Below are positions 29,798 through 52,205 of a stretch of DNA of 64,000 bases, in pieces. Within the stretch, counting starts at the first letter, position 1; each line of letters begins with the position of its first letter. The notes under the pieces were generated by a model. The model was not told where the DNA came from and did not search any database. It saw nothing but the letters and a program-made list of their open reading frames with translations. Location of the stretch: IMG/VR virus record IMGVR_UViG_3300050034_000334; one strand, given 5' to 3'. The position numbers and the translations under genes were made by a program. The stretch comes from a virus. Its lineage: Duplodnaviria > Caudoviricetes.

Positions 29798-30406
29798 TTA
29801 GATGGATTGTGAAGTCAAACAAGGAGGAATGAACACTTCTTTTCCTTCTCGCATCTGCTCTTCAGTTGTCAGGCGAGATTGATTCAGAGATTTATCTCTG
29901 CTCCAGTTATTCTGCTGCCGGCGCAGTCGCACAGTCTCTGCTATTCGTTGCTTTGTAGCCTCTGAATGCTTAGTAACTCCTCCGTGTTGAGTGGAACCCT
30001 TTGGTCTAGACAATCTCATTTTCTGTCGTGTTTCTTCCGGTAGACACTTGTTCCAAAAAGGATGATTTTCACCTCTCACTGCCTTGCTGATTCGTTTCCT
30101 AACATCTTTGTTAGGTTCTCCACCATCAGCTCCCTTTGTCATATTGTACCCATCGACAAAAGTTCCAAGTTTCTCTATCCAGAAGACTTCAGCCTCATTC
30201 AGTTCTTCAGGACTATCACAATGTTGAATTGTACTGATGTCAAATGCTGCCTCTCCGTGCTTTCTAAGGGATCTATGCAAGTAATAACGCGATCCTCTAG
30301 ATGATTCCAGCCGGTGTCTATACCAGCGATCATCAGGAGTATCCTTGATGCTCTGGCCTACATACATCTTACCATTTATCCTGTTTCGTACCAAGTAGAC
30401 TATCAT
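29798..30406 (-). CDS. GIY-YIG homing endonuclease with NUMOD3
   Basis: MIVYLVRNRINGKMYVGQS; GENHPFW; ATGA overlap with upstream stop. Confidence 0.88.
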   Translation of the reverse strand: MIVYLVRNRINGKMYVGQSIKDTPDDRWYRHRLESSRGSRYYLHRSLRKHGEAAFDISTIQHCDSPEELNEAEVFWIEKLGTFVDGYNMTKGADGGEPNKDVRKRISKAVRGENHPFWNKCLPEETRQKMRLSRPKGSTQHGGVTKHSEATKQRIAETVRLRRQQNNWSRDKSLNQSRLTTEEQMREGKEVFIPPCLTSQSI

Positions 30407-31923
30407 GACATTATTGCCCCCCAAACCGTTGTCCTTCCAACTTCTGGATTGGGATTTTCCCACTGAGCATCTGGCTGATTGGTCTTTTCGAAGATAGGTT
30501 CCGGATCGACGCCAGGTACTCCATCGTTGACATTCGCCTGCAATGGATTGTACAAAGTGGGAGGATATGGATTCCCAGCAATGACCGGAATGAGGTAACG
30601 AGTGTCTTTGGGATTCAGCAACTTGACATTGAACTCTTGCTGAGCGATAGCACCCTGAGGCTGCGTATAGTTCATGTCGAACACGATCAGCCGTTCACCG
30701 TTCCGTCGAATGATGAGGTCACCATTTTGAATGATGGGAGTCGGTCCAAGGTAGGATTTCGAGATGCGCTCTACTTTCCGGCCTCCCTCCTCAATGGTGG
30801 TATTGGTTGCCGTGTCTGGCGGAATGTAGACAATGTCGAATGGTCCGTAGTATCCGCCAACCCATCCTGTTTCGTAACACACTGGGCAGCCGTGACGAGG
30901 CTCTCCAACTCCGTCTCCCACGCAGCCACACGCTGTACCTCGCGACATCCGGAACATGATAAATGCTGGCTCTCCTACTCTCTCAAAGAGCCAGGCATTT
31001 CTCCGTATCTGCTCCTTGAGCATGTAATTCAGACGTTCAATCGTCTGAGTGTTGACGATTTCCGATCCTGCAGCACCGGGTGCGTGGAGATCTCCACTTG
31101 CTCCTACTGGGACCACGGTGTAGTATGTCCGCACCATGTTGGTATAGATGTCGACGAAGTTCGTCAACTGGTTGTAAGTCACCTTGAAGGTAGTGACACT
31201 GGCTAGAGCCGAAATTGGGAAGTTGGAAACTGCACCACCGATTGGCAGAGTCTTGTCAACATTGATCCAGATGGCCTTGTCAATTCCACTCACCATCGCA
31301 GGGCGAACAGTCGAGGTTGCAACGAGGCTCGATATCACCGTGAGAGTATCTGTAGGAACGGTTGGTGCCAGCGAAAGGGTATATGGTCCACCATAAGCGA
31401 CAAGGGTGGCAGTCACTCCGATGGACGCAGCTGTGATGGCCGCCGCAAGCAGTACGATGCTATTGTTGGAGGTGGTTGTGAAAACCACAGGAGTTGATAC
31501 TCCCACTTGTAGAGAAATGGTTCCGGAGAGAACATCGGTACCAGAAACTGTGGTGAGGGAACCATTCAGGAAATTCAGATCCGTTGCAAGTATGACACTG
31601 ACATCCTCAGGAGAAGTGGCCACCTGAGGTCTGGTCTCCACAATCCCTGAATATGGAACGTCTGGAATCTGAAATGACCAGCGACCAAAAGTTCCCTTTT
31701 CAATCCAGTCGGAATCTTGCACTGTGTAAGTGGTTGAGGCTAGAGTTGAAATGTCACGATAGAACTGACCAGGAATTGGAGCAAGATTGAGCAGTTGCCA
31801 GTTGGCTGGATAGTCGATAGCTCGGTAGACATTGTATCCCACTGTGGCCTTGGGATCATTTGGCCACCACAGGTCACGGCTCCCGACATAGCTCGAATTG
31901 AGGACTACCAACCCACAAATCAT
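30403..31923 (-). CDS. Probable head-tail joining (neck) protein
   Basis: FN3-like N-term (VGYNVYRA); CGC...CPVCYETGWVGGY motif seen in large-phage neck proteins. Confidence 0.5.
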   Translation of the reverse strand: MICGLVVLNSSYVGSRDLWWPNDPKATVGYNVYRAIDYPANWQLLNLAPIPGQFYRDISTLASTTYTVQDSDWIEKGTFGRWSFQIPDVPYSGIVETRPQVATSPEDVSVILATDLNFLNGSLTTVSGTDVLSGTISLQVGVSTPVVFTTTSNNSIVLLAAAITAASIGVTATLVAYGGPYTLSLAPTVPTDTLTVISSLVATSTVRPAMVSGIDKAIWINVDKTLPIGGAVSNFPISALASVTTFKVTYNQLTNFVDIYTNMVRTYYTVVPVGASGDLHAPGAAGSEIVNTQTIERLNYMLKEQIRRNAWLFERVGEPAFIMFRMSRGTACGCVGDGVGEPRHGCPVCYETGWVGGYYGPFDIVYIPPDTATNTTIEEGGRKVERISKSYLGPTPIIQNGDLIIRRNGERLIVFDMNYTQPQGAIAQQEFNVKLLNPKDTRYLIPVIAGNPYPPTLYNPLQANVNDGVPGVDPEPIFEKTNQPDAQWENPNPEVGRTTVWGAIMS

Positions 31924-32448: not shown

Positions 32449-33153
32449 CTATAGAGAAAGAGAAAGTTCACAAAAGGAACATCCTGGTTTTTTAATTCCT
32501 CGATTGAGATGCCAACGTGTGTGATGAGCCTTTGGAAGACTTCGAGCAGCTATCCGACCGGCTCTTTGTAGGGTTTCTCTGGAATGAGACTTGCCTCCAA
32601 GGGAGTGAACTTCACGAGACATGCGGGTTGACATTTCTTCCGGATGTTCTTCCGCATATTTCCGGCAACCAGCTACTCGAGGAGTTTCGTCTTGGACTGC
32701 ACGGGCTGCCTTGATTTTGTCAATGGTTTCCTCCGAAGTGAGATGTCCCATCATCTTGGCAGAGAACCTTTCTTTATGACCAGGACGTTGCCACATGAGA
32801 CGAGTGTTTTCAATTATCTTGAGACGAGATTCTTCAGAGTGAGGTGCAGTATGCCCTTCTCCACCTTTGCAAATATTGTATCCGATTTCAGGATCACGAG
32901 CTAAGAAAATCTTAATCAGTGCTTGTTCCCAAACACAGAGAGCCTCATTATTTGCACAATCAGTAACGAGAGGATAGATAGTGAAATTATCCCAACCATA
33001 CTTTCGAACAGCATTATAGAGATGAGGCTTTCCAGCATCGCCTTTCAGAATTGAATCTTTCTGCCTAGACCAATAATGTTGAAGATTGTTCTCTTTCGTT
33101 TTACCGACATAGATCTTGCAGTTTACCACATTGACGATCACGTAGACAAACAT
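32449..33153 (-). CDS. GIY-YIG homing endonuclease
   Basis: MFVYVIVNVVNCKIYVGKT; HLYNAVRKYG; GYNICKGGEG. Confidence 0.9.
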   Translation of the reverse strand: MFVYVIVNVVNCKIYVGKTKENNLQHYWSRQKDSILKGDAGKPHLYNAVRKYGWDNFTIYPLVTDCANNEALCVWEQALIKIFLARDPEIGYNICKGGEGHTAPHSEESRLKIIENTRLMWQRPGHKERFSAKMMGHLTSEETIDKIKAARAVQDETPRVAGCRKYAEEHPEEMSTRMSREVHSLGGKSHSRETLQRAGRIAARSLPKAHHTRWHLNRGIKKPGCSFCELSLSL

Positions 33154-36394: not shown

Positions 36395-37534
36395 ATGCTC
36401 AAACTGGACTATTATGGCCAGAACGATGGAACCACGGTTCCTAACGTGGTTTTGACTGGCACCCCAGGGGTTGACCAGACTACCCTCACCAACGCTGGTT
36501 ACCTTGGCGGAAAAGTTATGGCCATGGTGGGAACGTACTCAGCAGATGGATTCCCACTCATCGCGCCTTGCGATGCGTACACCATGAACCCCTATGGACT
36601 GCTCGCAAACGGTCCTGGAGAGTTCGCTGGGGCAATCGGACCTTCCGGCTCCAAGAAAGCTCCAATCTTCCGCGCAATGCTCAAGGGCGGAGTGGACAGT
36701 CAAGCATATGCCGGCAGTGGATTCGTCGCCGGACATCCCATCTACTGCGGTGCCGGAGTCAACTCTGGACTCATGGTTGCGACCGCTCCGATCATTCCTC
36801 TGGCGCTGACCAATCCCTCGGTAGTTCTGGCACAAGTTGCTGCAGTTTCCACCGCGACGTTTACCTTCAACGCTGCCGCAGACACCCTCTTTGGCAACTT
36901 CGTTGTTGGACTTGGCGCAAGAACTCTGATTACAAACCCCACTCCAACCGTACCCACTGCCCTGGTTCCTGCGACCGCGACCTACACCTTTGCCGCTGCC
37001 GGCGACACTGTGATTGGCAGCTTTGTGATCAACATCGCTGCGGTTGGCGCAGTTACCACTGTCATCCCTGCAAGAACAACTCTTGGCGGTGCTGTCACTC
37101 TGCTGAATACCGCTGGCAATCTTCCTGCTGGAGTGACCGCCTCTGTCTCTGGTGCCTCGATCGTCTTTACAGGTATCGTTGGAACAGGCAACACTCTGAC
37201 GGTCTCTGCGACTGCGGTCTATGACGTGGTGACAACCACCACCACTATCGTTATTCCGGATGACACGACCCTTCCAGCCGCCGTTCTTCTGCTGAATGCT
37301 CTGCCGGCTGCTGGTGGTCTTCCCACCGGAGTGGTTGCCACTAACCCTGGCGCTGGTGCAACGATCGTTCTTACCGGCAGTCCAGTTGGAATCGGCAACG
37401 ATCTGGTCATCACCGGAACTTCACTCTTCGACGTCAAGGCAACGGGAGGAGTTGCTGTTCCTCCCATTGGCATCTGCATGGCGCCACCTTCGGCAACCAA
37501 CAGTTTCTTCCTGAAATTCGCGTCCTTGCTGTAA
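36395..37534 (+). CDS. Probable capsid decoration/fibre protein
   Basis: 379 aa G/A/T/V-rich with internal duplicated TATFTFNAAADT/TATYTFAAAGDT modules; AAGGAG RBS. Confidence 0.45.
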   Translation: MLKLDYYGQNDGTTVPNVVLTGTPGVDQTTLTNAGYLGGKVMAMVGTYSADGFPLIAPCDAYTMNPYGLLANGPGEFAGAIGPSGSKKAPIFRAMLKGGVDSQAYAGSGFVAGHPIYCGAGVNSGLMVATAPIIPLALTNPSVVLAQVAAVSTATFTFNAAADTLFGNFVVGLGARTLITNPTPTVPTALVPATATYTFAAAGDTVIGSFVINIAAVGAVTTVIPARTTLGGAVTLLNTAGNLPAGVTASVSGASIVFTGIVGTGNTLTVSATAVYDVVTTTTTIVIPDDTTLPAAVLLLNALPAAGGLPTGVVATNPGAGATIVLTGSPVGIGNDLVITGTSLFDVKATGGVAVPPIGICMAPPSATNSFFLKFASLL

Positions 37535-37555
37535 TCAGTATTTGCCGCTAAGACC

Positions 37556-37594
37556 AGAACCTCTCCGAGATTAAGCGGAGAGGTTCTTCTTTTT
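37556..37594 (+). terminator. Intrinsic terminator
   Basis: agaacctctccg-N8-cggagaggttct then tcttttt; contains the stop of the convergent kinase gene. Confidence 0.85.
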
Positions 37595-38365
37595 GAATTC
37601 AGATCTCTTGAAGTGATAGAGATCGTCTGCACGACCGCACACTCCACAAGTGGGATCCTTGGGATCAGGTTCACCCTCCGAGAAATCTGGTTCCCACTGA
37701 TGATGAAAGGCCTCTGCTTCATCCCTGATCCAACCCAACACAGTTGAGACCGCTTGCTTGTGAGGAATGGTCCGCACGTCCTTGGTCTTGGACTGGCAGG
37801 GCTTGATCTTGCAACACTCACACTTGTCAGTTCCCGCCAGTTCGAACTTCTTCCTGGATGAGATGATAGCCTCGAACTTCGGCGCCAGAGTCTTGTAAGG
37901 ATCGAAGGGCTTGATATTCCCCTTGGCCGCCCTGCGGGACAGCGTCTGATCGATGCAACGCTGGAGAGGGGTGTCGAGAAAGCCAAAGATGAAGTGATGC
38001 TCATTGAGTTCATCAGCCAAACTGTTGTAGCGACTGAACAGACCGGAGATCAGCAAACCTTCATACAGGACGTTGCCCAGAGGAGCCCACTCACGAATGA
38101 GATCACAGATCTTATCCTGAGTGTTGATCCCGTCACATCCACCACACTCATTGACATAGGAGCCTAGAACATACAAATCTTTGGGTTGCATCTGTTTGTT
38201 ATTTGGATTCTTAGGAGGGATAACCACGTTCTTACACACGTATCCACGGATCTTGCCTTTTTCATCCAGAATGGGCTGACCATCGTATACACTCAGAATC
38301 GCTCTGACAATGGTACTTTTCCCTCCGCCATTCGTGGAGCGGATGTTCACAACTAGGTTCCCCAT
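37571..38365 (-). CDS. P-loop kinase resembling 5-hydroxymethyluracil-DNA kinases of hypermodification loci
   Basis: NIRSTNGGGKSTIVR; YVLGSY...CGGCDGI; VLYEGLLIS; LDTPLQRCIDQTLSRR. Confidence 0.65.
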   Translation of the reverse strand: MGNLVVNIRSTNGGGKSTIVRAILSVYDGQPILDEKGKIRGYVCKNVVIPPKNPNNKQMQPKDLYVLGSYVNECGGCDGINTQDKICDLIREWAPLGNVLYEGLLISGLFSRYNSLADELNEHHFIFGFLDTPLQRCIDQTLSRRAAKGNIKPFDPYKTLAPKFEAIISSRKKFELAGTDKCECCKIKPCQSKTKDVRTIPHKQAVSTVLGWIRDEAEAFHHQWEPDFSEGEPDPKDPTCGVCGRADDLYHFKRSEFKKKNLSA

Positions 38366-38406
38366 TCGTTAATTCCCCTAACATTGAGACTTCCTGTTTC
38401 CAGGTT

Positions 38407-39282
38407 ATGAGAACTAATACTGAGAAAATCTGTTCATGTGGTAAGTCATTCAGAATGACATATAGGCTGGAGGGAATTCCCACCAATAAATGTCTTGCTT
38501 GTTCCTTCCCAGAAGAAATTGCTCGAAGAAAGGAGCGTTTCAAGGGATCCAGTAATCCTAGATTTGGAAAACCAGGCACTATGAAAGGAAGAAATCCGTA
38601 TGATCTGTGGGTTGAGAAGTACGGAACGGAAGAAGCCGATCGTCGTAAATCTGAACTCAACTCTAAACAGGGACGTCCTCATACAAAGGATTGGAAAGAA
38701 GATCACAGTAGGAAAATGACTGAATCTAATTCCATGGCTGGCCGTTCTATATACTCAGTCTGGCTGGAGAACTATGGGAAGGAAGAAGCCGACTGTAGGA
38801 TGATAGCATCCAGAGCTAAATGGAGTCTAGCTTCTTCCGGATCCAACAACCCCATGTTTGGAAAACCCTCTCCTATCGGTTCCGGTTGTGGATGGAGCGG
38901 CTGGTATCGGGTTCACTACTTTCGAAGTCTCCTTGAACTCTCTTACATGCTCAAATTTGATGAGGAAGGTACTGTTTGGGAATCCGCTGAGAAGAAATAC
39001 CACAAAATTCCCTACCAGACTTCAACCGGATCTAAGAATTTCTTTCCTGATTTCTATCTTCCTCTCACAGAGGAATTTGTTGAAATCAAACCTCGAGCAT
39101 TGACGTACACAGAGGGTAATAAGGCCAAATTTGCTGCCGCCAAAAATCTCCTAGGAGATAAGTTCAAAGTGCTCACAGAAGACAACATTCACAAGATACA
39201 AGGAGATCAACTGAGTCACTTAGTTTCTTCTGGAACGGTCAAGCTACTTCCAAAATGGCAAAACCGACTTTCAATCTCGTAA
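38407..39282 (+). CDS. Putative homing endonuclease, TnsA-like PD-(D/E)XK with NUMOD3 repeats
   Basis: GSSNPRFGK/GSNNPMFGK; FRSLLEL; FFPDFYL...VEIKP. Confidence 0.75.
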   Translation: MRTNTEKICSCGKSFRMTYRLEGIPTNKCLACSFPEEIARRKERFKGSSNPRFGKPGTMKGRNPYDLWVEKYGTEEADRRKSELNSKQGRPHTKDWKEDHSRKMTESNSMAGRSIYSVWLENYGKEEADCRMIASRAKWSLASSGSNNPMFGKPSPIGSGCGWSGWYRVHYFRSLLELSYMLKFDEEGTVWESAEKKYHKIPYQTSTGSKNFFPDFYLPLTEEFVEIKPRALTYTEGNKAKFAAAKNLLGDKFKVLTEDNIHKIQGDQLSHLVSSGTVKLLPKWQNRLSIS

Positions 39283-39299
39283 CACAAGGAGAAAATTTC

Positions 39300-39854
39300 A
39301 TGGCGTCGTTTAGCATCGCATTCGCCTGGACAATGGTCTTTGAAGACCCCAAACTCCAATACGCACAAGTTGATGACGTGCCTAATCAGTATGACGGCAA
39401 TGGAAAACGGATTGGTGCATTTGCCATTTCCGGAATCAACAGTGCTGCTTTCCCCACTCAGTTTGCCAAGATCGCCCTGGTTCCTCAGTCGCAGAGAGGT
39501 CCGGATGTTCAGGCTTTCTATCAAGGTAACTTCTGGGGCATCCACTATGGTCAGCTGGCTGATGACATTGCCAAGAGATTGTTCGATGCAGGAGTCAATG
39601 CTGGAGAAGTGACCGCTGTCGAAATCTTCCAGAAGGCCATCAACTCTCTCGGTGGAACACTCAAGGTGGACGGAGGCATGGGTCCCATGACCGTGGCCGC
39701 CGCCAATGCTCTTGACATCAGTCATCTGGTTTCAGCCTTTCAGAACTTCCGTCTGGCTCACTACCAAGACATCGTGGCCAAGAATCCCAACGATGCTAAA
39801 TTCCTCGGCACTGCTGCCAAACCTGGTCCTTGGTGGAAGAGAGCGATGGCCTAA
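39300..39854 (+). CDS. Endolysin, glycoside hydrolase family 108 with peptidoglycan-binding domain
   Basis: FE.P...SGI...FY...FW...LFDAGVNAG...FQKAI...KVDGGMGPMT; AAGGAG RBS before ATG 39300. Confidence 0.85.
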   Translation: MASFSIAFAWTMVFEDPKLQYAQVDDVPNQYDGNGKRIGAFAISGINSAAFPTQFAKIALVPQSQRGPDVQAFYQGNFWGIHYGQLADDIAKRLFDAGVNAGEVTAVEIFQKAINSLGGTLKVDGGMGPMTVAAANALDISHLVSAFQNFRLAHYQDIVAKNPNDAKFLGTAAKPGPWWKRAMA

Positions 39855-39889: not shown

Positions 39890-40420
39890 TCAGGTATCAA
39901 GCAAGTCTCCCATGTCCTTCACTTTGGCCATTTCTATGTCGCGCCGCCGCTCGTTGGGAGACTTGCGGGTCTTGTTCAGAGGAAGTGATTGCAGGCGGGA
40001 GACGGCCTCATTGAAATTCAAGCCATCTTCCAACTGCTCATCAGAGATGTCTCCCTTGCGATGAAGGAACTCGGCAACTGTGCCCAGCAGGATCCTAAGT
40101 TGATCCACAGCAATCACTGCTGTAGGATTAGGACGAGCAGCCGCTTCGGCAATCTGGTGCTGGGCATACTCCTCGGGATAGTAGAAGAGCATCGCTTTGG
40201 TCAGGTAGGACTGAGACTTGAGCAGATCCTGGAAGCCGTTCTTGTCCTGATGACGATCAATGTACTTGCTGATCTGAGCATCCAGGTACGGAAGTCCGGC
40301 TGCGTAGTCCCAGTGCTGAATGATCCCTGAGCAATGAGGGCATTTGGACTTCTTGTTGTAATGACTTCCACCAACCTGCTTCACTGGATGGTCTTCGATA
40401 TTTGGCATGAGATCCTCCAT
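39890..40420 (-). CDS. DUF3310-like protein
   Basis: KQVGGSHY...IQHWDY...ISKYIDRHQDKNGFQDLLKSQSYL. Confidence 0.75.
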   Translation of the reverse strand: MEDLMPNIEDHPVKQVGGSHYNKKSKCPHCSGIIQHWDYAAGLPYLDAQISKYIDRHQDKNGFQDLLKSQSYLTKAMLFYYPEEYAQHQIAEAAARPNPTAVIAVDQLRILLGTVAEFLHRKGDISDEQLEDGLNFNEAVSRLQSLPLNKTRKSPNERRRDIEMAKVKDMGDLLDT

Positions 40421-40441: not shown

Positions 40442-41038
40442 TCAGTTCTGCCAAATCCAAACCCGGTTCAATTCAGGAGAAGTGGCACGACTGCGGATGA
40501 AGGAAAGATTGTACTCTTCGTGAGGCAGAGCCATAATCTTCTTCTGTCCATGAATCTTCACGTTTCATACATTTCCACCTGACTCTGGAGGAGGAAGGTT
40601 CTGGTCGATCCACTCAGTGACCCATGAGGCAATCACAACTTCTGGTTGATAGAAGTCAACTGCTTCCACTGCGTCTAGGGTGTGAACCTCGCTGGGATAC
40701 TTTATGACAGGCTGTCTCATGATTGCATAGTGCTGGCGGATCTCTGGCCATTCCTGCATCCTGTTGTCTGTTGCAGCTATACCCAAATAGTGAGCCAGGT
40801 CTCCAGAACCAGCACCAATCTCAATTGCTTTTCTTCCGTTGATACGCTCACGAAGCCATGCCACGAGTTCAGTAGTCGGCAGCCCATACCTGGCATTCTG
40901 ATTGCACCAGACTCGCAAGGCGTCATGTGAAATCTGATCGTAGGATTCAGCGGGAAGCAACTTGAGTCTGCCATTCGCTTCCAGAAGATCCGGAAGAGAC
41001 AATGAGTTCGAAAGGATGCTGATTTCCACTGAATTCAT
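40442..41038 (-). CDS. Class I SAM-dependent methyltransferase-like gene with in-frame TGA at 40565
   Basis: AIEIGAGSG motif I; frame stays open 40 codons past GGNV* (NVKIHGQKK...VWIWQN*). Confidence 0.6.
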
Positions 41039-41295
41039 CTCTCTTCCATAAGTTTGTCGACCTCTTCGTCGTCAGCAATTTGCTTCTTCTGGATCTCGTC
41101 CTTGATCCTTGCATACTCGGTTTTCAGGGCCTCTCCCTGGCAATCCTTTGCATGGGTGATCTCAGACCCTCCCTTGCCGCCCACGTCGGAATGACCGCAG
41201 AAATGGCAGCGGGTACGACCCCAATCAATGTCGTAGTAATACTGGTACTTCTCTACAAACTGCATTGCCTGTTCGGTGACACTCTCAACGCTCAT
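41035..41295 (-). CDS. Small hypothetical protein
   Basis: 86 aa with CHFCG...H...C. Confidence 0.65.
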   Translation of the reverse strand: MSVESVTEQAMQFVEKYQYYYDIDWGRTRCHFCGHSDVGGKGGSEITHAKDCQGEALKTEYARIKDEIQKKQIADDEEVDKLMEER

Positions 41296-41313
41296 AGTTT
41301 TCTCTACGGAATT

Positions 41314-42027
41314 TCATGCCAGAGCGGGTACAAATTCGATATCCCATCTATCACATGATTCCTTTGAGAGAAATTGACCCATCGCTCGCCTAGTCATCAT
41401 CTGATTGCGAATACTTTTGCGGATTTGTTCAGGAGAGTTTACCTGCCCTTTGTGTGATTCACTAAGTCTGTCAACTGTTTCCTGTGAGGCTTTCTGGCCT
41501 ATCCTCCGACTTCGAATATCAGCAATCTGCTGTTCTGACCAAGGGTTTTCTCTTCGTATCTTGGACAACAATTGCTTCTGTTCAGCACTCATAGGCCCTT
41601 TTGTCTTGCCTCTCTGTACATCACCAATTTTCTTTCTGGAGGCTGCTGTATGACAGTAGTTCCCCCTTCTTCTTCGAGTTTCAACTCTTTTTCGTATTTC
41701 TTCTTGAGACTGAACTCTTCCAGCACCACTGTACGCCTTAGCTAGACTGTTGTATCCATTGTGGAAAGCATCTAGCTTATCAATCCAGAATTGTTCTCGT
41801 TCTTCCAATTTTGCTCTGTTTGGGTTAGTAATTTCTTCAAGCACATTCCAATCCCAAACCTCTGAACCATACTTCTTCCAGGAACGAAGCAGCTTTGGGC
41901 CGGTGTGGCTCCCGTCTTTGAATCCTTGAATATGAATTTGCCATCTTCCATAAATATCCACAGAACTTCCAACGTAGGACTTCTTGGAATTCCGATTGTA
42001 TATTTGATATACACCAGCAGTCTTCAC
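41314..42027 (-). CDS. GIY-YIG homing endonuclease with NUMOD3
   Basis: GVYQIYNRNSKKSYVGSS; REQFWIDKL; GGAGGT RBS. Confidence 0.9.
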   Translation of the reverse strand: MKTAGVYQIYNRNSKKSYVGSSVDIYGRWQIHIQGFKDGSHTGPKLLRSWKKYGSEVWDWNVLEEITNPNRAKLEEREQFWIDKLDAFHNGYNSLAKAYSGAGRVQSQEEIRKRVETRRRRGNYCHTAASRKKIGDVQRGKTKGPMSAEQKQLLSKIRRENPWSEQQIADIRSRRIGQKASQETVDRLSESHKGQVNSPEQIRKSIRNQMMTRRAMGQFLSKESCDRWDIEFVPALA

Positions 42028-42059: not shown

Positions 42060-44183
42060 TCAGGAAATTCCTAACATCGTCAAAAAGCGACTTGGCTCAA
42101 CCGGGGTCTTAGTCCATCCTGTGCTAGTCTTCTTCAGAAGAAAAGTTGGTACACAGATAGTCACTTTGTTTCTGGCCCTAGTGAGTGCCACGTAAAATAG
42201 GCGCATTTCTTCCTCGATTTCTGTTTCATTTCCCATCGAATACATATGGGGCAATGAGCCTTCATAACAGTTCGTTAGAAAAATCGCATCCCATTCTAAT
42301 CCCTTGGCCTTGTGAATGGTGGAGATGACCACACGACCATCCTTGTCTTCATCCTTGGCCTGTTCATCCATGGACAACTGAAAGACCACGTCTGCCAAGT
42401 TCATGATGTTCGTTTCAAGGAGACCGACTACGAGGAGCGCGAGCCGCTCGAGGTTCTCGAGCTTGATGGTCAGCTTCTCAACATCCTTCCTGTACTTGTC
42501 TCTGAGATAGTTGCTGTATCCCGAGAGCTTGATTGCGAAGTCGAATGCGTTGACCGGGTCATCGTGTTTCTGCTGGATGTGCTTGACGATATCGACGAAG
42601 GCACCGGCCTTGTCTTTGTTCACTGCCCAGCATCCCGACAGGAGATCCCCGGCGAACTGCTTGTTGGCAACGTCACGAATTTTCTCTAGGGCGACCGTAC
42701 CAAGACCTCTCTTGGGAGCCGCTATCGCTCGATTCAAAGCCATGAAATCCTTGGGATTGACCGCCAGTCGGAGATAAGCAAGGACATCACGGACCTCCTC
42801 GGTCTGAAGAAGTCCTTGGCCGCCGCGCACCACATAGGGGATGCGCAACTTGACCAGTTCGGCCTCTAGGTCGCGAACCTGGCTCTTGCCCGATCTGACA
42901 AGGATTGCGTTCTCCTTGTAGGGAGTCGTCTGCCGATCACGATAGATCTGTGAAGCGATCCGATTGGCGATCTCCCGGGGAGTACCGTCGTCCTCTCCAC
43001 CCTTCATCAAGCTGGTGGTGCCTGTGTGTCCCAGTTCTCCTCTGGCAGAGGCCATCTGTAGAGGGATAGTCATCACCATTTTCTTCTGCACAGCGTTCGC
43101 TAGACCAACGATCTCAGGCACGCTCCGGTAGTTCTGAGCGAGCCGGTAGAGTGTTGGGGTTACACCACGCCACTTCTCACTGTAAGCCTTGAGGATCTCT
43201 GGAGCAGCGCCGTTGAAGCCGTAGATACTTTGTGACAAATCTCCTACAACGAACAAGTTGAAATTGTCCACAGGAATGAGAGATTCCACAAACTGCCATT
43301 GAACCGGACTAAGGTCCTGAACCTCGTCCACAAGGACATAGTTGAACATCTTGGCCCAAGCAGTTGCCCAGGATTTATCAGCCTGAACACGTCGCACCAC
43401 TAGATGGAGCATGTCCGAAAAATCTAATGTAGACGTGGCTTGTTTTTCATCTTCGAACTTCTTCCACAGATAAACTACCTCAGAATCAAGAGCATGATAT
43501 CCTGAATGACTATGCAGGGATTGCTGATGAATTTCAGCAGTATAATCAGTTGAAAACCCAACTCCTCTGGCACGATGATAGGCAATTCGTTCAAGCAAAT
43601 TCCAGGGATTGAACTGATCACGATCACTTTCTTTAATTTCACGATCGATGATCTTTTTAAGCAGGATACCCTGATCATAGTCATCTAGTAGAGACACTCT
43701 CTCCTGCAGACCAAATCCTCTAGGATTTCTTCTAATTGCTGCCAGAGCCAACGAGTGAATTGTGGATACTCGAGGCACTCTATCTCTAGGGGTGTCAACA
43801 GTGACTCCTAGTCTATCAGCCATCTCGTTTGCAGCTTTATTGGTGAAAGTTAGAGCAGCTAATTTGCGAGGTTCTTGTCCGGCCTCTGCAATGAGCCATC
43901 TCACTCTTTCAGTAAGAACTAGAGTTTTTCCACTACCTGCTCCAGCAATCAAGCACACCGGGGATCCTACAGGATGTCTAACCACAAGTTGTTGTTCTTC
44001 GTTCATGATAATCTCCAATACTAAACTTCCTGAACCAAGGATCACAGTTCCTTTGCAGCCATTCATGAAGCAGAATCCTCCAATCGAAGGAAATTTAGAC
44101 TCTGCTCCACACTTGGGACATGTACCCGGTTTGGTGAGAAGGTTCGCAATCTGACTTTGTTGCAAAACCTTGAGGCGAGTCAT
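42060..44183 (-). CDS. uvrD: UvrD/PcrA superfamily 1 helicase
   Basis: AGAGSGKT, LTFTNKAA, STIHSLA, VDEVQD, VGDLSQSIYGF, NYRS, STIHKAKGLEW, RLFYVALTRA. Confidence 0.95.
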   Translation of the reverse strand: MTRLKVLQQSQIANLLTKPGTCPKCGAESKFPSIGGFCFMNGCKGTVILGSGSLVLEIIMNEEQQLVVRHPVGSPVCLIAGAGSGKTLVLTERVRWLIAEAGQEPRKLAALTFTNKAANEMADRLGVTVDTPRDRVPRVSTIHSLALAAIRRNPRGFGLQERVSLLDDYDQGILLKKIIDREIKESDRDQFNPWNLLERIAYHRARGVGFSTDYTAEIHQQSLHSHSGYHALDSEVVYLWKKFEDEKQATSTLDFSDMLHLVVRRVQADKSWATAWAKMFNYVLVDEVQDLSPVQWQFVESLIPVDNFNLFVVGDLSQSIYGFNGAAPEILKAYSEKWRGVTPTLYRLAQNYRSVPEIVGLANAVQKKMVMTIPLQMASARGELGHTGTTSLMKGGEDDGTPREIANRIASQIYRDRQTTPYKENAILVRSGKSQVRDLEAELVKLRIPYVVRGGQGLLQTEEVRDVLAYLRLAVNPKDFMALNRAIAAPKRGLGTVALEKIRDVANKQFAGDLLSGCWAVNKDKAGAFVDIVKHIQQKHDDPVNAFDFAIKLSGYSNYLRDKYRKDVEKLTIKLENLERLALLVVGLLETNIMNLADVVFQLSMDEQAKDEDKDGRVVISTIHKAKGLEWDAIFLTNCYEGSLPHMYSMGNETEIEEEMRLFYVALTRARNKVTICVPTFLLKKTSTGWTKTPVEPSRFLTMLGIS

Positions 44184-44494: not shown

Positions 44495-45136
44495 TCAGTT
44501 CACTGAACAAGTGAAACCTTTGGGAAGATCTTGCAAGTCATACCGCAGGAGTTTGCTACCGGCGATGCATCTCACGATTTCGTCAGGAGTCACAGGGCAG
44601 ACCGGAGGATAGGGACTTTCCTTGAGAGTCTGAACCACCTGTCCCGGGATACGACCCACAGAGTACTCAGGACGCATGATGAGCGGAGCATCCACGCAAA
44701 CTTCGCGGCCTCTGATCATCTTTCCCTTCTCGTCGCGAACCTCAGGTGTGATTCCCCAGAGCAGATGACCCAGGGCATGGTGCATCATCATGCCGGCATA
44801 GGTTCCTGCCAGACTCTTGATCCTCTTGCATCCACGCTTGATCGCTTCGGCCTCGACAACCTTGTAGAGTTCCGTGGCATATCCTTTGCGACGGATGGCG
44901 ACCGGAGTGTAGGCTGTGTACCAGTTGGCATAGGGTTCCCAGATGTTCTTGCTCTTCTTGCCGAAATAGGTGACATTCAGCGTGAGCAGGGCACCAGCCG
45001 GGTCACGGAGGATATAGAGGGGTGCCCCTCTGAAGACTCCCATATCAACTTCTGACAGGACTGAGGATTTCTCTCCGATATCCTTGACGATCCTTCTGGC
45101 TTCTTTGGGCTCAGTTACGATTTCAATCGTGTTCAC
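44495..45136 (-). CDS. GNAT-family acetyltransferase
   Basis: YTPVAIRRKGYATELY acetyl-CoA motif A; GTG start overlaps the TGA of the upstream gene (GTGA), GGAG RBS. Confidence 0.75.
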   Translation of the reverse strand: MNTIEIVTEPKEARRIVKDIGEKSSVLSEVDMGVFRGAPLYILRDPAGALLTLNVTYFGKKSKNIWEPYANWYTAYTPVAIRRKGYATELYKVVEAEAIKRGCKRIKSLAGTYAGMMMHHALGHLLWGITPEVRDEKGKMIRGREVCVDAPLIMRPEYSVGRIPGQVVQTLKESPYPPVCPVTPDEIVRCIAGSKLLRYDLQDLPKGFTCSVN

Positions 45137-47010
45137 TTGGACACTCCAATCGGTGCGTTGGGTAGCAGTCCTCGATTGATCATCGGCCACAAGCCGATCA
45201 TTCGACCTTCATCTCTAAGGACGTGCTCCATGGATCGGGTAACTCTGACTCTTGGAGGATCTACCAACTCTCCAAGATACTCATGAATGAGGTTTTCTTT
45301 CCTGAATTGCCATAGAACATTCCAGTCTATTCCGCTGGTGATATCCTGCTGATCTTGCATCTGCTGAATCTCGTCCGCCATTCGATCAAGGTAGTATGGC
45401 AGATAGCGACCTTTGGTGGTCCGGAAGTATCCCTTGTATGCACACAGACACGACTCCATGAACCAGTGATCCATGCCCAGCAGAGGGTACTCAACTTGGA
45501 TCTCCTTGATCAGAATTTCGAGCTCTTTCTCGAGCCAAGCCCACTGCTCCTTGTTGAGTTTTTCGAAGGCCCAATCGGCTTTGCCCAGGACGATGCAGAG
45601 GCCAGCGCGTGGCGAGTCAGCTTCTTTAAGGAAGACTGTGTCAGCCTGGAGAGGCATTCCCATACAGCGAGCAAGGCACTCAGTGTAGATGTACACACTG
45701 TAACGACCGAAGCGCATGAATTGGTTCAGGGCCTTGGTCACGTTGTGGAAGTTCTCAATCTTGTTGGTGGAGGTGAGGTGCTTGGCGAAGAATTCCTCCT
45801 GGGCAGTCGAGGTCTGTTTGCCCATCTGCTTGACATAGTCCTCGAACATCTCCACGAAGTGACCCTTGAGATACTTCCGGTCCGTGTTGTACCTCAGCTT
45901 CTTCCAGTTCTCAGTATGCCAACGACGGAGCCGCCCGATGTCGATCTTCTCGAACTCAGGAAATTCCTGCATCACATAGAAGACAGAGCCGGGGTGATAG
46001 AACACTCCATACAAGTAACAAATCCAGTACTCCTGACTCTTTGACATCTCCCACCGGCGGAAGACGTAGTTCAGCAGAGCATAGTTTGGATCTATCTCCC
46101 AGGAGGCCACGGAGGATACACAGTACCTTTTGAATGAGTCACGAAGAGCCTTGCGATGGTCTCCTCCGGTCCAAATTGGGAGGTCAAGAATCACATGCTT
46201 GCTGTCAAAAGGGACCGAATGCTTGCTCATCATGACGTTCGCAATGGGAGGTCTCTCAAATCTCTTCTCAGGAGCATAGTACGTTTTGTATCTCTGAGAA
46301 CTGACGGACTTTCCTGTACCAGAGAAGGTGTATATGGTGTAAGGTTCACACTCCTGAACTGTACACTTGTGTCCCTCGAACTCGAAGGCTCTCATGATGA
46401 TGTCCTGAGTGGAAGCGAATCCTTGCATGGACAATTCAGGACAGTCAAACATCCACAAAGGTCTCAAGTGGTCCCGCATCAGATAGATGGACCCCAGATA
46501 GTCTAGGAATCCACAAGCAAAGATAGGAGGAGCCACTTCATAAACTTTTCGAAAAGCCTCAGCAATGGTGCCTTTCAATGCATGACGTAAGAATATCTCG
46601 GAGTCATTGGCGGTCTCGGTGTCGATCTTGTAATCGGCTTCGAACTCTTCCTTGGTCGCCATAGACACCAGACCGTTATGGACGATCGCCAGCTGCGGAG
46701 TGCTGAGAGGCTGAGTGTTATTGTTGTCATGCCAGTCTCCACTGGTGGAGTACCGGCAATGTCCAATCATGGTCTTCGGAATCTTGCAAGACAGATCCGT
46801 CCAGCCAGCCGTTTCCAGCAGGGCCTCAGCACAAATTGGCGCCTTGAAGGTCTTGACCTCTCCCTGTTGCCAGGTTGGACCTTCCACCCAAGACACCCCA
46901 GACGCGTGCTTCCCACGAACCTGAGCCTCAATCATCAGCCGCTCAAATACCTTGAAGGCATCGTGTGCTCGGTCAGTATTGTACAGCTTGTACCCAACGA
47001 TTCCGCACAT
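45133..47010 (-). CDS. Class II glutamine amidotransferase fused to amino acid:DNA transferase (aGPT-Pplase2-like) domain
   Basis: MCGIVG, GHCRYSTSG, HNG, DSE; C-half DPNY, FGRYSVYIYTECL, SPRAGLC, ESCLCAYKG, GRYLPYYLDR. Confidence 0.75.
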   Translation of the reverse strand: MCGIVGYKLYNTDRAHDAFKVFERLMIEAQVRGKHASGVSWVEGPTWQQGEVKTFKAPICAEALLETAGWTDLSCKIPKTMIGHCRYSTSGDWHDNNNTQPLSTPQLAIVHNGLVSMATKEEFEADYKIDTETANDSEIFLRHALKGTIAEAFRKVYEVAPPIFACGFLDYLGSIYLMRDHLRPLWMFDCPELSMQGFASTQDIIMRAFEFEGHKCTVQECEPYTIYTFSGTGKSVSSQRYKTYYAPEKRFERPPIANVMMSKHSVPFDSKHVILDLPIWTGGDHRKALRDSFKRYCVSSVASWEIDPNYALLNYVFRRWEMSKSQEYWICYLYGVFYHPGSVFYVMQEFPEFEKIDIGRLRRWHTENWKKLRYNTDRKYLKGHFVEMFEDYVKQMGKQTSTAQEEFFAKHLTSTNKIENFHNVTKALNQFMRFGRYSVYIYTECLARCMGMPLQADTVFLKEADSPRAGLCIVLGKADWAFEKLNKEQWAWLEKELEILIKEIQVEYPLLGMDHWFMESCLCAYKGYFRTTKGRYLPYYLDRMADEIQQMQDQQDITSGIDWNVLWQFRKENLIHEYLGELVDPPRVRVTRSMEHVLRDEGRMIGLWPMINRGLLPNAPIGVSK

Positions 47011-47059: not shown

Positions 47060-47257
47060 CTAGATTTGGGTCATCTTCTCTTGAAGAACAGCGAGCCCAT
47101 CCAGCACCATTGCCACAAGCAGCGTTTGGCGATGGACGTTCAATCTCAGAGCATGCTCTTCGATCAGATTCGCTTGCGACTCAGGAATTCGCAACGTGAA
47201 CGCCTTGAATGGTTCTTTCTTTCCCAGGTTATTCACCAGATTTTCAACGTAGCTCAT
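47060..47257 (-). CDS. Ribbon-helix-helix-like DNA-binding protein
   Basis: FTLRIPESQANLIEEHALRLNVHRQTLL; ATGA overlap with Nudix stop. Confidence 0.5.
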   Translation of the reverse strand: MSYVENLVNNLGKKEPFKAFTLRIPESQANLIEEHALRLNVHRQTLLVAMVLDGLAVLQEKMTQI

Positions 47258-47709
47258 AACCACCCCATGTGTCGAAACTTCTCGATGCACGGATACCAGA
47301 TCTTGTCCTGCAGCTTCGGCAAATCTGTTACTGGGACCCACTGCCAGTCGCTACTCTTGGTTGGCTCTGTGTTGACCGGCTCGCCGCCGATCCATTCTCC
47401 GACGAAGTAGATCGTGATGTAATGCTTGCCCTGTTCCCGACTGATGTCCTCGGTGAATCCGACGAGATGGACTTTTCCCAAAGTTAGACCCGTCTCTTCT
47501 TCGGTCTCACGACGAGCCGCTTCAGATGCCAACTCGTACTTCTCTACATGACCGCCTGGTAAACTGAGGAATCCATATCCGTATTCCTTCCTGCGAATTC
47601 CCAACAGGATGTACTCCAGCCCAATCCCTTCCGGGTCTCCACCAGGAAGGTACTTGTGGACGATCATGCCGGTGCCAACACCGGGCCTCTCAATAGAGTC
47701 TGAACTCAC
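47254..47709 (-). CDS. Nudix hydrolase
   Basis: GGHVEKYELASEAARRETEEETG Nudix box. Confidence 0.92.
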   Translation of the reverse strand: MSSDSIERPGVGTGMIVHKYLPGGDPEGIGLEYILLGIRRKEYGYGFLSLPGGHVEKYELASEAARRETEEETGLTLGKVHLVGFTEDISREQGKHYITIYFVGEWIGGEPVNTEPTKSSDWQWVPVTDLPKLQDKIWYPCIEKFRHMGWL

Positions 47710-49871: not shown

Positions 49872-50642
49872 ATGACTACAAATCTATACGCAGAGAAACT
49901 GGAGCAAAACGCCATCAGCAACAAGTACACTCGATGGTATCTACGTCTTTGCCTCAGAGCAGGTAATCGAAGTGATCTTCAAGGATACATTGAAGAACAT
50001 CATGTCCTTCCTAGATGTCTCGGAGGAAATTCTGAAAAGACTAATCTTGTGATTTTAACCGCAAGAGAACATTTCATTGCTCATCTTCTCCTCACTAAAA
50101 TGTTCAGAGGGCAACGGTTGTACAAGATGCTGGCCGCTGCTTTCTTCATGGCAAACCGTACTCGGATGTATCGAGGAAGCCGCACTTATCAAACTCTACG
50201 AGAAAACTATGCCCAGGAAGTGAGTAACCATTTCAAGGGAGTTCCAATTTGTTCAGACGTGCTGGCCGCAAGGATCGGAAAGTCTCACGACCATCATGTT
50301 CTTCCACATCCTGTTCACCAATGTATACTCGTTGGAGAAACAATAGCTGAATTTGGGCACGATCCTCGTATTCTTAAATCTATGAGTAACCGCAAAGTGA
50401 AAGTCAGGTATCCCTGCTGTGGAACTATTTTAGACCGGCCATTCTATGCAGCCAATAAAGGATTGAACTACTGTAAATCCTGTTTTATACAGAAGAATCT
50501 GGAGGCAATGAATACCTTTCAAGGGCGCAAAGAAGCTGCTGAAAGGATGCGTGATAAGTGGACAAAAGCATCCTTCCGGGAGCATACCTCTCGAGCAGTA
50601 TCCAATGCGAACAAGACTAGGAGAACTCCACCAAGTACCTGA
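49872..50642 (+). CDS. HNH homing endonuclease
   Basis: EEHHVLPRCLGG...NLVILTAREHFIAHLLL. Confidence 0.88.
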   Translation: MTTNLYAEKLEQNAISNKYTRWYLRLCLRAGNRSDLQGYIEEHHVLPRCLGGNSEKTNLVILTAREHFIAHLLLTKMFRGQRLYKMLAAAFFMANRTRMYRGSRTYQTLRENYAQEVSNHFKGVPICSDVLAARIGKSHDHHVLPHPVHQCILVGETIAEFGHDPRILKSMSNRKVKVRYPCCGTILDRPFYAANKGLNYCKSCFIQKNLEAMNTFQGRKEAAERMRDKWTKASFREHTSRAVSNANKTRRTPPST

Positions 50643-52083
50643 TGTTGGCTTGGCTTACTCTGTAGACTATGGCCTCATGATTCATGATTCCACTTCTTCC
50701 TGGTACTGCATTGCAAGAATCATACCCAGACTGCTTTCCGTTGCCTGGTCCAGAAGGAACGTACTCTCTCCCCATGGCCACATCCACTAAGAACATATAG
50801 CAGTTTTTGTCTTTGTTTCCACCGTCCCAGTAACCATATGAATAGTTCAAACTTTTCGTGCTATTTTCACTGAAATACAATCCATTTCCGAACATCGCGC
50901 CGGTGGTGGAGATGGTGCTCAGTGCATTGGGCATGACCAAGCCACGCTTGAGGATCGACAGCACGTTGAACATACGAGTTCCGTGCCACAATTCCTTGAT
51001 GTTGCCGACCTTGTGACCGTCGGTGTCGAAAGCCTTGATCATGTGAGGGATGGTAACCTCATAGACCCGAACTGGCTTCAACACGGAGGACTGATGACCA
51101 CGAGTGCCGGTCGTGAGATACTTGTGCTTGATGCGCTCGATGAGTTTGTTGTCCGAAACCAAAGTGAGTTTGCATTCAAAGGTCGAAGGAGCAGCCACGA
51201 CTTTCTTGTCAGTGACCTTGTTGGCCGCGTTCACGGCATCCGTGATGCGCTGTTCGGCGATTTCGATCGAGGTTTCGATCTGGTCGAGCAAAGAGGTCTG
51301 CTTCGCGAGATCGATGAAATCTTTGTGCCATCCCCGCAGACGAGGAGTAGCTTGGGGAACCAAGCGGAGGTATCTGCTGAGCAGACCAGGTTCACCGGGC
51401 TTGCCACAGTAGATAGGATTTTCGGTGTCGTTCTTGCGAACGAACGGCTCCATCTGAGAGAGGATTGTACGGGCACCTTGAACTGCTTCGAGAGTCACAA
51501 CGCCCATCGCGGTGCGAACGATGCCCGTTGCCAGGTCTATGTCCATGCCGCCTTGTTCGATACCACCAGTCGCCTTGATGAGTTCGTGCCTGTTCGCTTC
51601 CGCAAGTTTCTTGACCAGTTCAGCCGTGACAGGACAGGCACCGGCGATTTCCTTGACAGCCACTCTCTTGACTTCTTCCTTGGCCATTGACGATCCGCCG
51701 TTGCCATTGGAAGGCCGATTGAAAGAGACTTTGCCCGACTCAGCTTCGCCGCCCACGATCGTGATTTCCGTGTAGCTTGGCTCAGGGAAAGGCTTGTGAG
51801 TCTTCTCGTAGACCTTGGAGAGGAAGTCCCTCTCGCTGGAAGAAACAGTCTTCTTCAGAAGTTTGAAACGGATCTCGTTATTGATGACTGTCATGTCGAG
51901 AGGGAAGGTGAGACCTGAGCGCACAAGAGGTTTGGTCTGCGTGGCCATTGGGCCACCCACTCTGCCCCACTCGTATTTGACAGTATTGTCGTCGTAGACG
52001 GTATAGGTCCAGGCCTTATTGTGATTAGCGTCAGCATTTGCCTCAACTGCGATGAACTTCCGATGCTCGATTATACCAGCCAT
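50617..52083 (-). CDS. PARP-like ADP-ribosyltransferase with N-terminal WGR domain
   Basis: NKAW...YEWGRVG; LWHGT, GAMFGNGLYFSENSTKSLNY, NHEAIVY (H-Y-E); start moved to 52083. Confidence 0.88.
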   Translation of the reverse strand: MAGIIEHRKFIAVEANADANHNKAWTYTVYDDNTVKYEWGRVGGPMATQTKPLVRSGLTFPLDMTVINNEIRFKLLKKTVSSSERDFLSKVYEKTHKPFPEPSYTEITIVGGEAESGKVSFNRPSNGNGGSSMAKEEVKRVAVKEIAGACPVTAELVKKLAEANRHELIKATGGIEQGGMDIDLATGIVRTAMGVVTLEAVQGARTILSQMEPFVRKNDTENPIYCGKPGEPGLLSRYLRLVPQATPRLRGWHKDFIDLAKQTSLLDQIETSIEIAEQRITDAVNAANKVTDKKVVAAPSTFECKLTLVSDNKLIERIKHKYLTTGTRGHQSSVLKPVRVYEVTIPHMIKAFDTDGHKVGNIKELWHGTRMFNVLSILKRGLVMPNALSTISTTGAMFGNGLYFSENSTKSLNYSYGYWDGGNKDKNCYMFLVDVAMGREYVPSGPGNGKQSGYDSCNAVPGRSGIMNHEAIVYRVSQANIRYLVEFS

Positions 52084-52090
52084 GCACTTC

Positions 52091-52118
52091 TCTACTGTCT
52101 TTGAGTGAAAATCGGGTA
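52091..52118 (-). promoter_or_regulatory. TACCCGA-N16-GTAGA promoter-like motif
   Basis: Exact motif 7 nt upstream of PARP ATG 52083. Confidence 0.65.
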
Positions 52119-52205
52119 ATCTATTTGACTTCCCAATCCATAGTGTACGTGCCAATCGCGACCCTGGCAGGTCCACTGGCCCTATGACTGAGAAGGAGTC
52201 ACAGC

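Follow-up and report, generated by a model that had tools for sequence, protein, structure and literature searches.

We analysed a 64,000-nucleotide stretch of phage DNA (hereafter the window), which corresponds to bases 60399-124398 of a 143,574-bp IMG/VR record (IMGVR_UViG_3300050034_000334) from an uncultured peat-soil jumbo phage, and in particular a minus-strand gene at 37571-38365 whose product, P0001, is a homologue of the phage kinases that act on 5-hydroxymethyldeoxyuridine (5hmdU) in DNA (5-hmdU DNA kinases, or 5-HMUDKs). The completeness of the record was 46% according to CheckV, its estimate for the full genome being about 310 kb, and the sequencing runs found to contain the window sequence were derived from peat, wetland and permafrost samples, with 72-78% of the sampled words present in the peat runs X19 and X20. 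The open reading frame (ORF) comprises 264 codons from ATG to TAA, and a purine-rich AGGGGA is located about 9 nt upstream of the ATG. P0001 (264 amino acids, aa) is composed of a kinase core (aa 1-216) and a low-confidence tail (aa 217-264), and its assignment draws on the ORF itself, on tblastn and hhalign searches and on an AlphaFold2 model. An initial annotation of the window had described a P-loop kinase at this position, on the same strand as a GATase-transferase fusion gene. The ORF and all three of the motifs named there were confirmed, namely STNGGGKST (aa 10-18, Walker A), CGGCDGI (aa 74-80) and YEGLLIS (aa 101-107), and the fusion gene at 45133-47010 is likewise encoded on the minus strand.

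The kinase ORF is not a chance ORF, because it has 33 homologues in a large protein collection (E values down to 1e-172), because a profile search of 1.84 billion representatives yielded 2320 relatives at E ≤ 1e-3 (743 of them at E ≤ 1e-30), and because the ratio of nonsynonymous to synonymous substitution rates (dN/dS) for the kinase core versus its closest relative was 0.21, with a dS of 0.43. The gene is under purifying selection. Family members recovered by the profile search are mostly 180-200 aa long (about 185-200 aa) and have no C-terminal extension; one of them, P0037 (400 aa), is a tandem fusion of two 5-HMUDK domains and recalls the two paralogous kinases of phage ViI.

Cultured phages were searched with tblastn against 50,697 phage records (a 2.3-Gb database). 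The top matches were gp49 of Pseudomonas phage PaMx11 and its counterparts in Abidjanvirus relatives, with 33-35% identity over aa 1-184 and E values of 2e-17 to 8e-16; PaMx11 gp49 itself gave 34% identity (E = 9e-17), and gene 00164 of Acinetobacter phage SH-Ab 15599 (SHAb15599_00164), annotated as similar to M6 gp54, was matched at E = 3e-12. In the reciprocal search, PaMx11 gp49 matched only the kinase locus in the 143-kb record (E = 1.5e-19). In Table 1 of PMC8989533, PaMx11 gp49 (YP_009196302) is listed among the purified enzymes as a P-loop '5-hmdU DNA kinase', and the same paper shows that a single phosphate is added to 5hmdU in DNA by M6 gp54 and its homologues. The 5-HMUDK of SH-Ab 15599 has been purified and used in vitro (PMC13458397). 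A profile search against phage 5-HMUDKs, which the initial annotation had proposed as a check, came out in its favour: in hhalign, a profile of 33 clade members matched PaMx11 gp49 and the 15599 kinase with a probability of 99.96% (E = 3.7e-39) over 203 columns, covering the whole core. The family, its reaction and the link among GATases, P-loop kinases and transferases have already been published (PMC8989533; PMC13229309), and P0001, judging from these comparisons, belongs to the known 5-HMUDK family as an intact although divergent member.

Conservation was assessed in an alignment of 179 family sequences. In the Walker A motif or P-loop of P0001 (aa 9-17, R-S-T-N-G-G-G-K-S; 38315-38341, minus strand), residues R9, T11, G13, G15 and K16 show 88-99% conservation across the sequences, and S17 is also present. 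The motif departs from the family pattern R-G-T-x-G-S-G-K-S/T only at G10S and S14G, both of which are conservative, with S14 being 82% conserved. Twenty-three positions are conserved in at least 85% of the family, and P0001 retains 21 of them: the five P-loop residues just named together with Y42, G68, Y70, G75, G76, C77, D78, V99, E102, G103, T132, P133, C137, R144, R145 and G149. The two that are altered are G10S, in the P-loop, and R140Q. Outside the P-loop, the motifs G-x-Y-x4-C-G-G-C-D, E-G, D-T-P, C137 and R-R are all present, with residues conserved at 87-100%. The family-specific C-G-G-C-D motif (aa 74-78; 38132-38146, minus strand) shows conservation of 97% for G75, 99% for G76, 87% for C77 and 100% for D78, the last of which is a candidate general base. 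PaMx11 gp49 and the SH-Ab 15599 kinase have the motif as well, the version in the latter being C-G-G-L-D.

A structure model obtained with AlphaFold2 from the clade alignment had a mean predicted local distance difference test (pLDDT) score of 81 and a predicted template modelling (pTM) score of 0.77. Residues 1-216 were modelled with confidence, most core blocks reaching 90 or more, and the tail at aa 217-264 was disordered (pLDDT below 50). When the model was compared with predicted viral structures, it matched the PhiW-14 '5-hmdU DNA kinase' (E = 4.7e-9) and the SP10 kinase (E = 1.4e-8), and ViI-like and PaMx11-like phage kinases also ranked high, whereas models of viral dTMP and deoxynucleoside kinases matched only at E values of 1e-4 to 1e-3, below the 5-HMUDKs. 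The kinases of Delftia phage PhiW-14 and Bacillus phage SP10 are among the top structural matches but share only 20% sequence identity with P0001, and that of SP10 is, unlike P0001, a 637-aa multidomain fusion.

This ranking bears on the possibility that P0001 is a free-nucleotide kinase, such as a 5hmdUMP or dNMP kinase that feeds the dNTP pool and has no action on DNA. The fold of P0001 is that of nucleoside monophosphate (NMP) kinases, some homologues have weak secondary Pfam matches to dNK or Thymidylate_kin and two are named 'thymidylate kinase' in their source, and a phage that replaces T with 5-hydroxymethyluracil (5hmU) needs phosphorylated 5hmdUMP. However, P0001 itself has no match to either dNK (PF01712) or Thymidylate_kin (PF02223), the Pfam family PF18748 (HMUDK_HMUD1) is always the top family for its homologues, members of the family have been proven to act on 5hmdU in DNA (PMC8989533), and the phosphorylation of 5hmdUMP has been assigned to host kinases (PMC13458397). 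The structure search placed 5-hmdU DNA kinases four to five orders of magnitude above dTMP kinases, and NMP kinases in the PDB gave template modelling (TM) scores of only 0.3-0.4 against the model. The best matches were to 5-hmdU DNA kinases; best matches to free-nucleotide kinases, which would have spoken against the initial annotation, were not obtained. We therefore consider an enzyme of the nucleotide pool unlikely and favour a kinase that acts on 5hmdU in DNA.

Gene neighbourhoods were surveyed with tblastn at 80 loci on viral contigs that encode a kinase homologue. On the kinase strand, a homologue of PaMx11 gp50 (HMUDK_hel, PF18723) was found at 75 of the 80 loci and within 3 kb of the kinase at 70, a thymidylate-synthase-like gene at 64, a gene for a DUF3310 protein (including PaMx11 gp53) at 45, and a gene for an amino acid:DNA transferase at 39. 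A second set consisted of 33 metagenome loci of at least 8 kb, with several contigs identical to viral-contig loci, and gave 26 thymidylate-synthase-like genes, 28 HMUDK_hel genes and 24 transferase genes (matches of two queries summed). In four loci, a GATase-transferase fusion gene was located at most 2 kb upstream of the kinase gene, being adjacent to it in L024/L143 and L150 and present also in L101 and L115; the cluster of L024 continues with genes for GNAT, HMUDK_hel, a thymidylate-synthase homologue and an HD hydrolase. Of the contextual arguments for a partnership between the kinase and the fusion protein of the window, this linkage is the strongest.

In the window, the fusion gene (45133-47010, minus strand) encodes a class II GATase_6 domain with an N-terminal M-C-G (Pfam E = 1.8e-8) joined to an amino acid:DNA transferase domain (ADDT, E = 3.5e-20), and a gene for a GNAT acetyltransferase (44495-45190, minus strand; Acetyltransf_1, 21.3 bits) lies downstream of it. 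The two genes share the strand of the kinase gene and are located 6.8 kb upstream of it. The intervening region contains genes for a UvrD helicase (42060-44183) and a GIY-YIG/NUMOD3 homing endonuclease (41314-42027), two genes of unknown type without a family match (40565-41038 and 41035-41295), and a gene for a DUF3310 protein (39890-40420, minus strand; DUF3310, 18.8 bits, below the cut-off), the same region of which is matched by PHROG families labelled nucleotide kinase. A methyltransferase that had been placed in this upstream run was not found there. The record as a whole contains one ADDT and, at G000:C1:35342-36229 (plus strand), 24 kb before the start of the window, an HMUDK_hel gene (PF18723, 139 bits). 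The hypermodification module is thus present but scattered. The HMUDK_hel protein is a stand-alone homologue of PaMx11 gp50 and of M6 gp55, the latter of which proved dispensable in vitro (PMC8989533). A search of the record for a second kinase type (HMUD2) was negative.

Among known systems, the closest comparison is with PaMx11 gp49, the kinase of the 5-acetylaminomethyl-dU pathway (PMC8989533), which can be aligned with P0001 from end to end over the kinase core and shares with it the R-G/S-T-x-G-x-G-K-S P-loop and the G-x-Y-x4-C-G-G-C-D, E-G, D-T-P and R-R motifs. The PaMx11 genome likewise encodes a transferase, an acetyltransferase, HMUDK_hel (gp50) and a DUF3310 protein (gp53). PaMx11 gp49 differs, on the other hand, in being 189 aa long and in lacking the loop at aa 47-59, the four-cysteine insertion and the C-terminal tail of P0001. 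The partners of PaMx11 gp49 are arranged in one tight co-oriented operon with a dUMP hydroxymethylase, whereas those in the phage studied here are spread over at least 70 kb, and the PaMx11 transferase works with glycine and, unlike the fusion in the window, lacks a GATase domain. The kinases of M6 (gp54), YuA and SH-Ab 15599 belong to the same family, with the same predicted reaction from 5hmdU-DNA to 5-phosphomethyl-dU (PMC8989533, PMC13458397), whereas the downstream chemistry in these phages differs, with diaminopropane or glycine being used. The SH-Ab 15599 enzyme is distinguished from P0001 not only by its C-G-G-L-D sequence but also by the lack of L-D-T-P and by unrelated N- and C-terminal extensions of its own.

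The substrate and the order of steps were inferred from the biochemistry of PaMx11, M6, ViI and SH-Ab 15599 (PMC8989533, PMC13458397); the nature of the final base is likewise inferred. Acting after replication on the phage's own DNA, the kinase would transfer phosphate from ATP to the 5-hydroxymethyl group of 5hmdU residues. In the resulting 5-phosphomethyl-dU, this phosphate would be the leaving group when the amino acid:DNA transferase domain of the fusion protein acts, and the GNAT protein would act after that transferase. The initial annotation had proposed a 5hmU-DNA kinase that supplies the first step of the pathway, and homology, conserved motifs, the fold ranking and the gene neighbourhood all argue for such a kinase, acting in the first post-replicative step. 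We put at about 80% the probability that P0001 is a 5-HMUDK whose action on 5hmdU in phage DNA yields 5-phosphomethyl-dU for the transferase domain of the fusion protein.

Several observations weigh against this assignment. At position 140, P0001 and its subclade have Gln in place of the Arg that 85% of the family carry. PF18748 gave no match to P0001 at E ≤ 1, and a six-frame search of the 143-kb record with this model gave none at E ≤ 10; because the direct Pfam scan yielded nothing, family membership was shown by way of homologues and the profile-profile comparison. For homologues that are 50-61% identical to P0001, PF18748 is the top Pfam family, with some scoring just below the cut-off. 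The scores were 30.3 bits for P0007 (61% identical to P0001) and 44 bits for P0023 (35% identical), with a cut-off of 27, and the Pfam model appears to be insensitive for the soil jumbo-phage clade to which P0001 belongs. Structural matches in the PDB (Foldseek, VIA) were generic P-loop kinases tied at Z scores of 10-12 and did not discriminate for substrate. They included the polynucleotide kinase Pnkp of C. thermocellum (4gp6, Z = 11.7), gluconate kinase (1knq, 11.4) and PSTK (3a4l, 11.1), which have the same P-loop kinase fold, with a root-mean-square deviation of about 3 Å over 141-154 residues, but are only 8-16% identical to P0001 and, tied within one Z unit, are uninformative on substrate. 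A sequence search of the PDB returned only noise (E > 0.2) and no 5-HMUDK sequence.

The layout of the genes also counts on this side, given that the kinase is separated by 6.8 kb from the transferase and by 62 kb from HMUDK_hel, whereas 70 of the 80 relatives keep HMUDK_hel within 3 kb. With regard to expression, one 956-nt contig from the X1 peat metatranscriptome spans the whole kinase gene (37430-38382) and a contig from the X2 metatranscriptome covers 37796-38249, the two representing two studies. The data from these RNA libraries are assembled contigs that carry no strand information and no transcript ends, that may include DNA carry-over and whose depth (very uneven across the region, from 0 to 1427) cannot rank genes, and their coverage of the kinase is no proof of transcription. 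Finally, no gene for a dUMP hydroxymethylase, ThyX (Thy1), Thymidylat_synt, TET/JBP or radical SAM protein was found in the 143-kb record, and a tblastn search of the record with the PaMx11 hydroxymethylase was also negative. The lack of a 5hmdU-forming gene is not decisive, because the record represents about half a genome.

This lack, together with the apparent origin of the N-terminal third of P0001, including its substrate-side motif, as a diverged allele (described below), would fit a DNA kinase for some other hydroxylated base, such as 5-hydroxymethylcytosine or another oxidised pyrimidine. The record is, however, only 46% complete, and both of the two complete viral records that have no thymidylate-synthase-like gene beside the kinase carry one elsewhere, far from the kinase. 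The family-invariant residues of P0001 are, moreover, all unchanged, and the partner enzyme is a transferase of the ADDT family, which is known only from thymidine pathways. A different target base is on these grounds very improbable, and 5hmdU is retained as the predicted substrate.

Two further parts of P0001 stand out. The first is a clade-specific 16-residue insertion at aa 179-194 (37784-37831, minus strand), identified in the family alignment, that contains four cysteines in the pattern C-x-C-C-x4-C. The corresponding columns are gapped in about 93% of the 179 sequences and the cysteine motif is present in only 8 of them; the block has a pLDDT of 80 and possibly forms a small metal-binding knuckle. 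The second is the C-terminal tail (aa 217-264; 37574-37717, minus strand), which was delimited by its pLDDT and by comparison with the kinase of the nearest relative (P0003, at locus L003). In the L003 kinase, the core is separated from a shared tail with C-G-V-C by about 100 additional residues that include C-P-K-C, and the tail of P0001 is a remnant of this longer Cys-rich extension. The extension is unlikely to be needed for catalysis, because most family members have none. The L003 protein is 366-370 aa long; its extra segment, encoded at L003 3895-4220 and missing from the window copy, is Cys-rich and zinc-ribbon-like, and the sole Pfam match within it was a weak one to Zn-ribbon_GIR1 (E = 0.03).

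Adjoining the 5' end of the kinase gene are two genes on the plus strand. One is a free-standing homing-endonuclease-like gene (38407-39282; NUMOD3, 21.5 bits; DUF7487, 23.2 bits, below the cut-off), whose 291-aa product has an N-terminal Cys4 motif, two NUMOD3 repeats and a C-terminal DUF7487-like region with a D...E-x-K pattern. The other encodes an endolysin (39300-39854; GH108 and PG_binding_3 in Pfam), for which 39300, and not 39255, is likely the true start, as indicated by the ORF in L003 and by a ribosome-binding site, AAGGAG. In the nearest relatives, L003 and L087, the neighbouring proteins are 91-99% identical to those of the window. Both have the DUF3310 gene, the oppositely oriented endolysin gene and the kinase gene but no endonuclease gene, and in L003 a 71-bp spacer separates the start codons of endolysin and kinase. 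At the DNA level, the window and L003 are about 100% identical between 40282 and 39281, an interval that includes the endolysin gene, and the identity stops inside the stop codon of the endonuclease gene. L088, from another sample, is collinear with the window over endolysin, endonuclease and kinase at 99.3% identity. Forms with and without the homing endonuclease (HE-plus and HE-minus) both occur in nature.

The initial annotation had regarded the whole of 38407-39854 as a plus-strand insert that cuts the kinase off from the modification operon. Two plus-strand genes are indeed located there and do intervene, but by comparison with the nearest relatives only 38407-39282 is an insertion, the endolysin gene being ancestral and shared. 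The kinase is also less isolated than had been claimed, given that the DUF3310 gene next upstream commonly belongs to such clusters, with homologues at 45 of the 80 loci. Synteny in relatives without the insert, which had been suggested as a check, shows the endonuclease gene to be absent from L003 and L087, but with the endolysin gene still lying between DUF3310 and kinase.

The part of the kinase gene that adjoins the insertion is a diverged tract encompassing codons 1 to about 80 (38123-38365, minus strand). Compared with L003, the first 240 nt or so (38362-38123) show 58-72% nucleotide identity and the remainder, from 38122 to 37704, shows 97-100%; at the amino acid level, identity is 66% for aa 1-80 and 99% for aa 81-216. 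No database protein exceeds 66% identity to aa 1-80, and the invariant residues are all retained in the swapped 5' part. The dS values of the endolysin and DUF3310 genes are 0.008-0.04, compared with 0.43 over the kinase core. The first 80 or so kinase codons look like a diverged allele that came with the endonuclease gene, which would have brought them when it entered the 71-bp spacer between endolysin and kinase.

In T-even phages, free-standing homing endonucleases such as SegG and MobE spread by intronless homing. The mosaic described here is most simply explained as intronless homing with one-sided co-conversion, with cleavage by the endonuclease being putative, because the junction facing the endolysin is sharp and a diverged tract extends into the kinase. 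As for SegG and MobE, the endonuclease gene is situated in an intergenic spacer beside a conserved gene, HE-plus and HE-minus alleles coexist, and a sharp junction on one side is accompanied by a diverged tract into the neighbouring gene on the other. Unlike SegG and MobE, the window protein has a nuclease domain that is not GIY-YIG or HNH by Pfam; with only NUMOD3 and DUF7487-like regions, it is a putative nuclease. A bolder reading, which we regard as tentative and rather doubtful, is that the endonuclease targets the 5' end of the kinase gene or the preceding spacer, that each homing event imports a foreign N-terminal third (P-loop, beta-hairpin and C-G-G-C-D), so that chimeric hypermodification kinases arise continually, and that the substrate is made by an undescribed route, as the dispersed layout and the lack of a detectable 5hmU-forming enzyme might suggest.

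The same mosaic could mean that P0001 is a decaying or inactive chimera, with its front third swapped, its C-terminal extension cut down and its gene stranded from those of its partners. Consistent with such a fate are the mosaic structure itself, an extension about 100 residues shorter than that in L003, the disorder of the tail in the model and the dispersal of the kinase from HMUDK_hel. The reading frame is open, however, and is preceded by a ribosome-binding site, the invariant residues are retained on both sides of the junction, and a dN/dS of 0.21 was obtained with a dS as high as 0.43. Most family members (about 185-200 aa) do without the extension, the HE-plus arrangement recurs at 99.3% identity in L088, and RNA-library contigs cover the gene. 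We judge loss of function to be highly unlikely, and an active 5-HMUDK is the reading that we retain.

That P0001 is a small terminase subunit, as its PHROGs match (phrog_800, 'terminase small subunit'; E = 3.7e-16) and the RefSeq names of PaMx11 gp49 and the homologues in Ab18, Ab19 and ZC01 would have it, is almost certainly wrong, since PaMx11 gp49 is an experimentally characterised kinase, the model has a Walker A P-loop kinase fold, and the neighbouring genes are those of nucleotide metabolism, helicase and lysis and not of packaging. The label, which is attached to members of the kinase family in NC_028770, NC_026594, NC_042115, NC_052965 and NC_029061, is an annotation error that has spread.

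A NUDIX hydrolase gene of the window (47254-47709, minus strand) lies directly upstream of the GATase-transferase fusion, whereas canonical clusters (PaMx11 gp52, L024) have instead an HD-domain hydrolase downstream of the hydroxymethylase; the NUDIX hydrolase might take over its function in clearing dTTP/dUTP. A weak ParB_N match that was followed as a dioxygenase lead proved to belong not to a dioxygenase but to a 749-aa protein (G000:C1:26645-28894, minus strand) that begins with an InPase domain (PF18823, 93 bits) and also has a region resembling FR47/GNAT and a stretch with weak similarity to ParB_N. This protein is possibly another DNA-modification accessory enzyme, and its neighbour is a 994-aa protein with a NUDIX domain. 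A PARP catalytic domain (PF00644, 81.7 bits) is present in a protein of 519 aa encoded at 50617-52176 (minus strand) of the window.

GIY-YIG/NUMOD3 homing-endonuclease genes are numerous in the window, being found at 29798-30463, 32449-33153 and 57607-58626 as well as at 41314-42027. In L003, a 689-aa ORF takes the place of the gene at 32449-33153, and an additional 448-aa ORF is inserted at the position corresponding to 36106 of the window. Convergent with the kinase gene is a plus-strand gene at 36395-37534, whose 379-aa product has no Pfam or PHROG match. The depth of RNA-library contigs over this gene is very high (1427 in X1 and 209 in X2), and its ends are conserved, with the middle (about 36810-37419) replaced in L003, L087 and an X3 contig; its product looks like a variable-cassette protein. 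A 12-bp hairpin followed by a T-run (37556-37587, plus strand), identified by a terminator scan and from the sequence as the terminator of this convergent gene, overlaps the last kinase codons. An overlapping 264-codon ORF in another frame (37219-38013) was judged spurious from its overlap with the kinase and convergent genes alone.

In a scan for sigma-70 promoters, sites were no commoner than in shuffled sequence. A search of the region upstream of the kinase for the phage motif TACCCGA-N16-GTAGA gave no match. Matches to this motif with up to two mismatches numbered 11, compared with 2.7 expected. One-mismatch copies are located at 41303-41330 (minus strand), ending 7 nt before the start of the gene at 41035-41295, and at 45214-45241 (minus strand), within the 3' end of the fusion gene and just before the GNAT gene.

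What is specific to this locus is a clade missed by Pfam, a wrong 'terminase' label, a scattered jumbo-phage layout and an endonuclease-linked chimeric 5' third of the kinase gene. The kinase would supply the missing activating enzyme for the proposed GATase-transferase/GNAT route, and the predicted pathway, from 5hmdU through 5-phosphomethyl-dU and an aminated base to an acetylated base, is testable with three recombinant proteins. Given that the Pfam model misses this clade and that PHROG and RefSeq spread a wrong label, surveys of thymidine hypermodification undercount the kinase family. The endonuclease-linked mosaic, as read here, would provide a clear case from nature in which a DNA-modification gene has been reshaped by a mobile nuclease.

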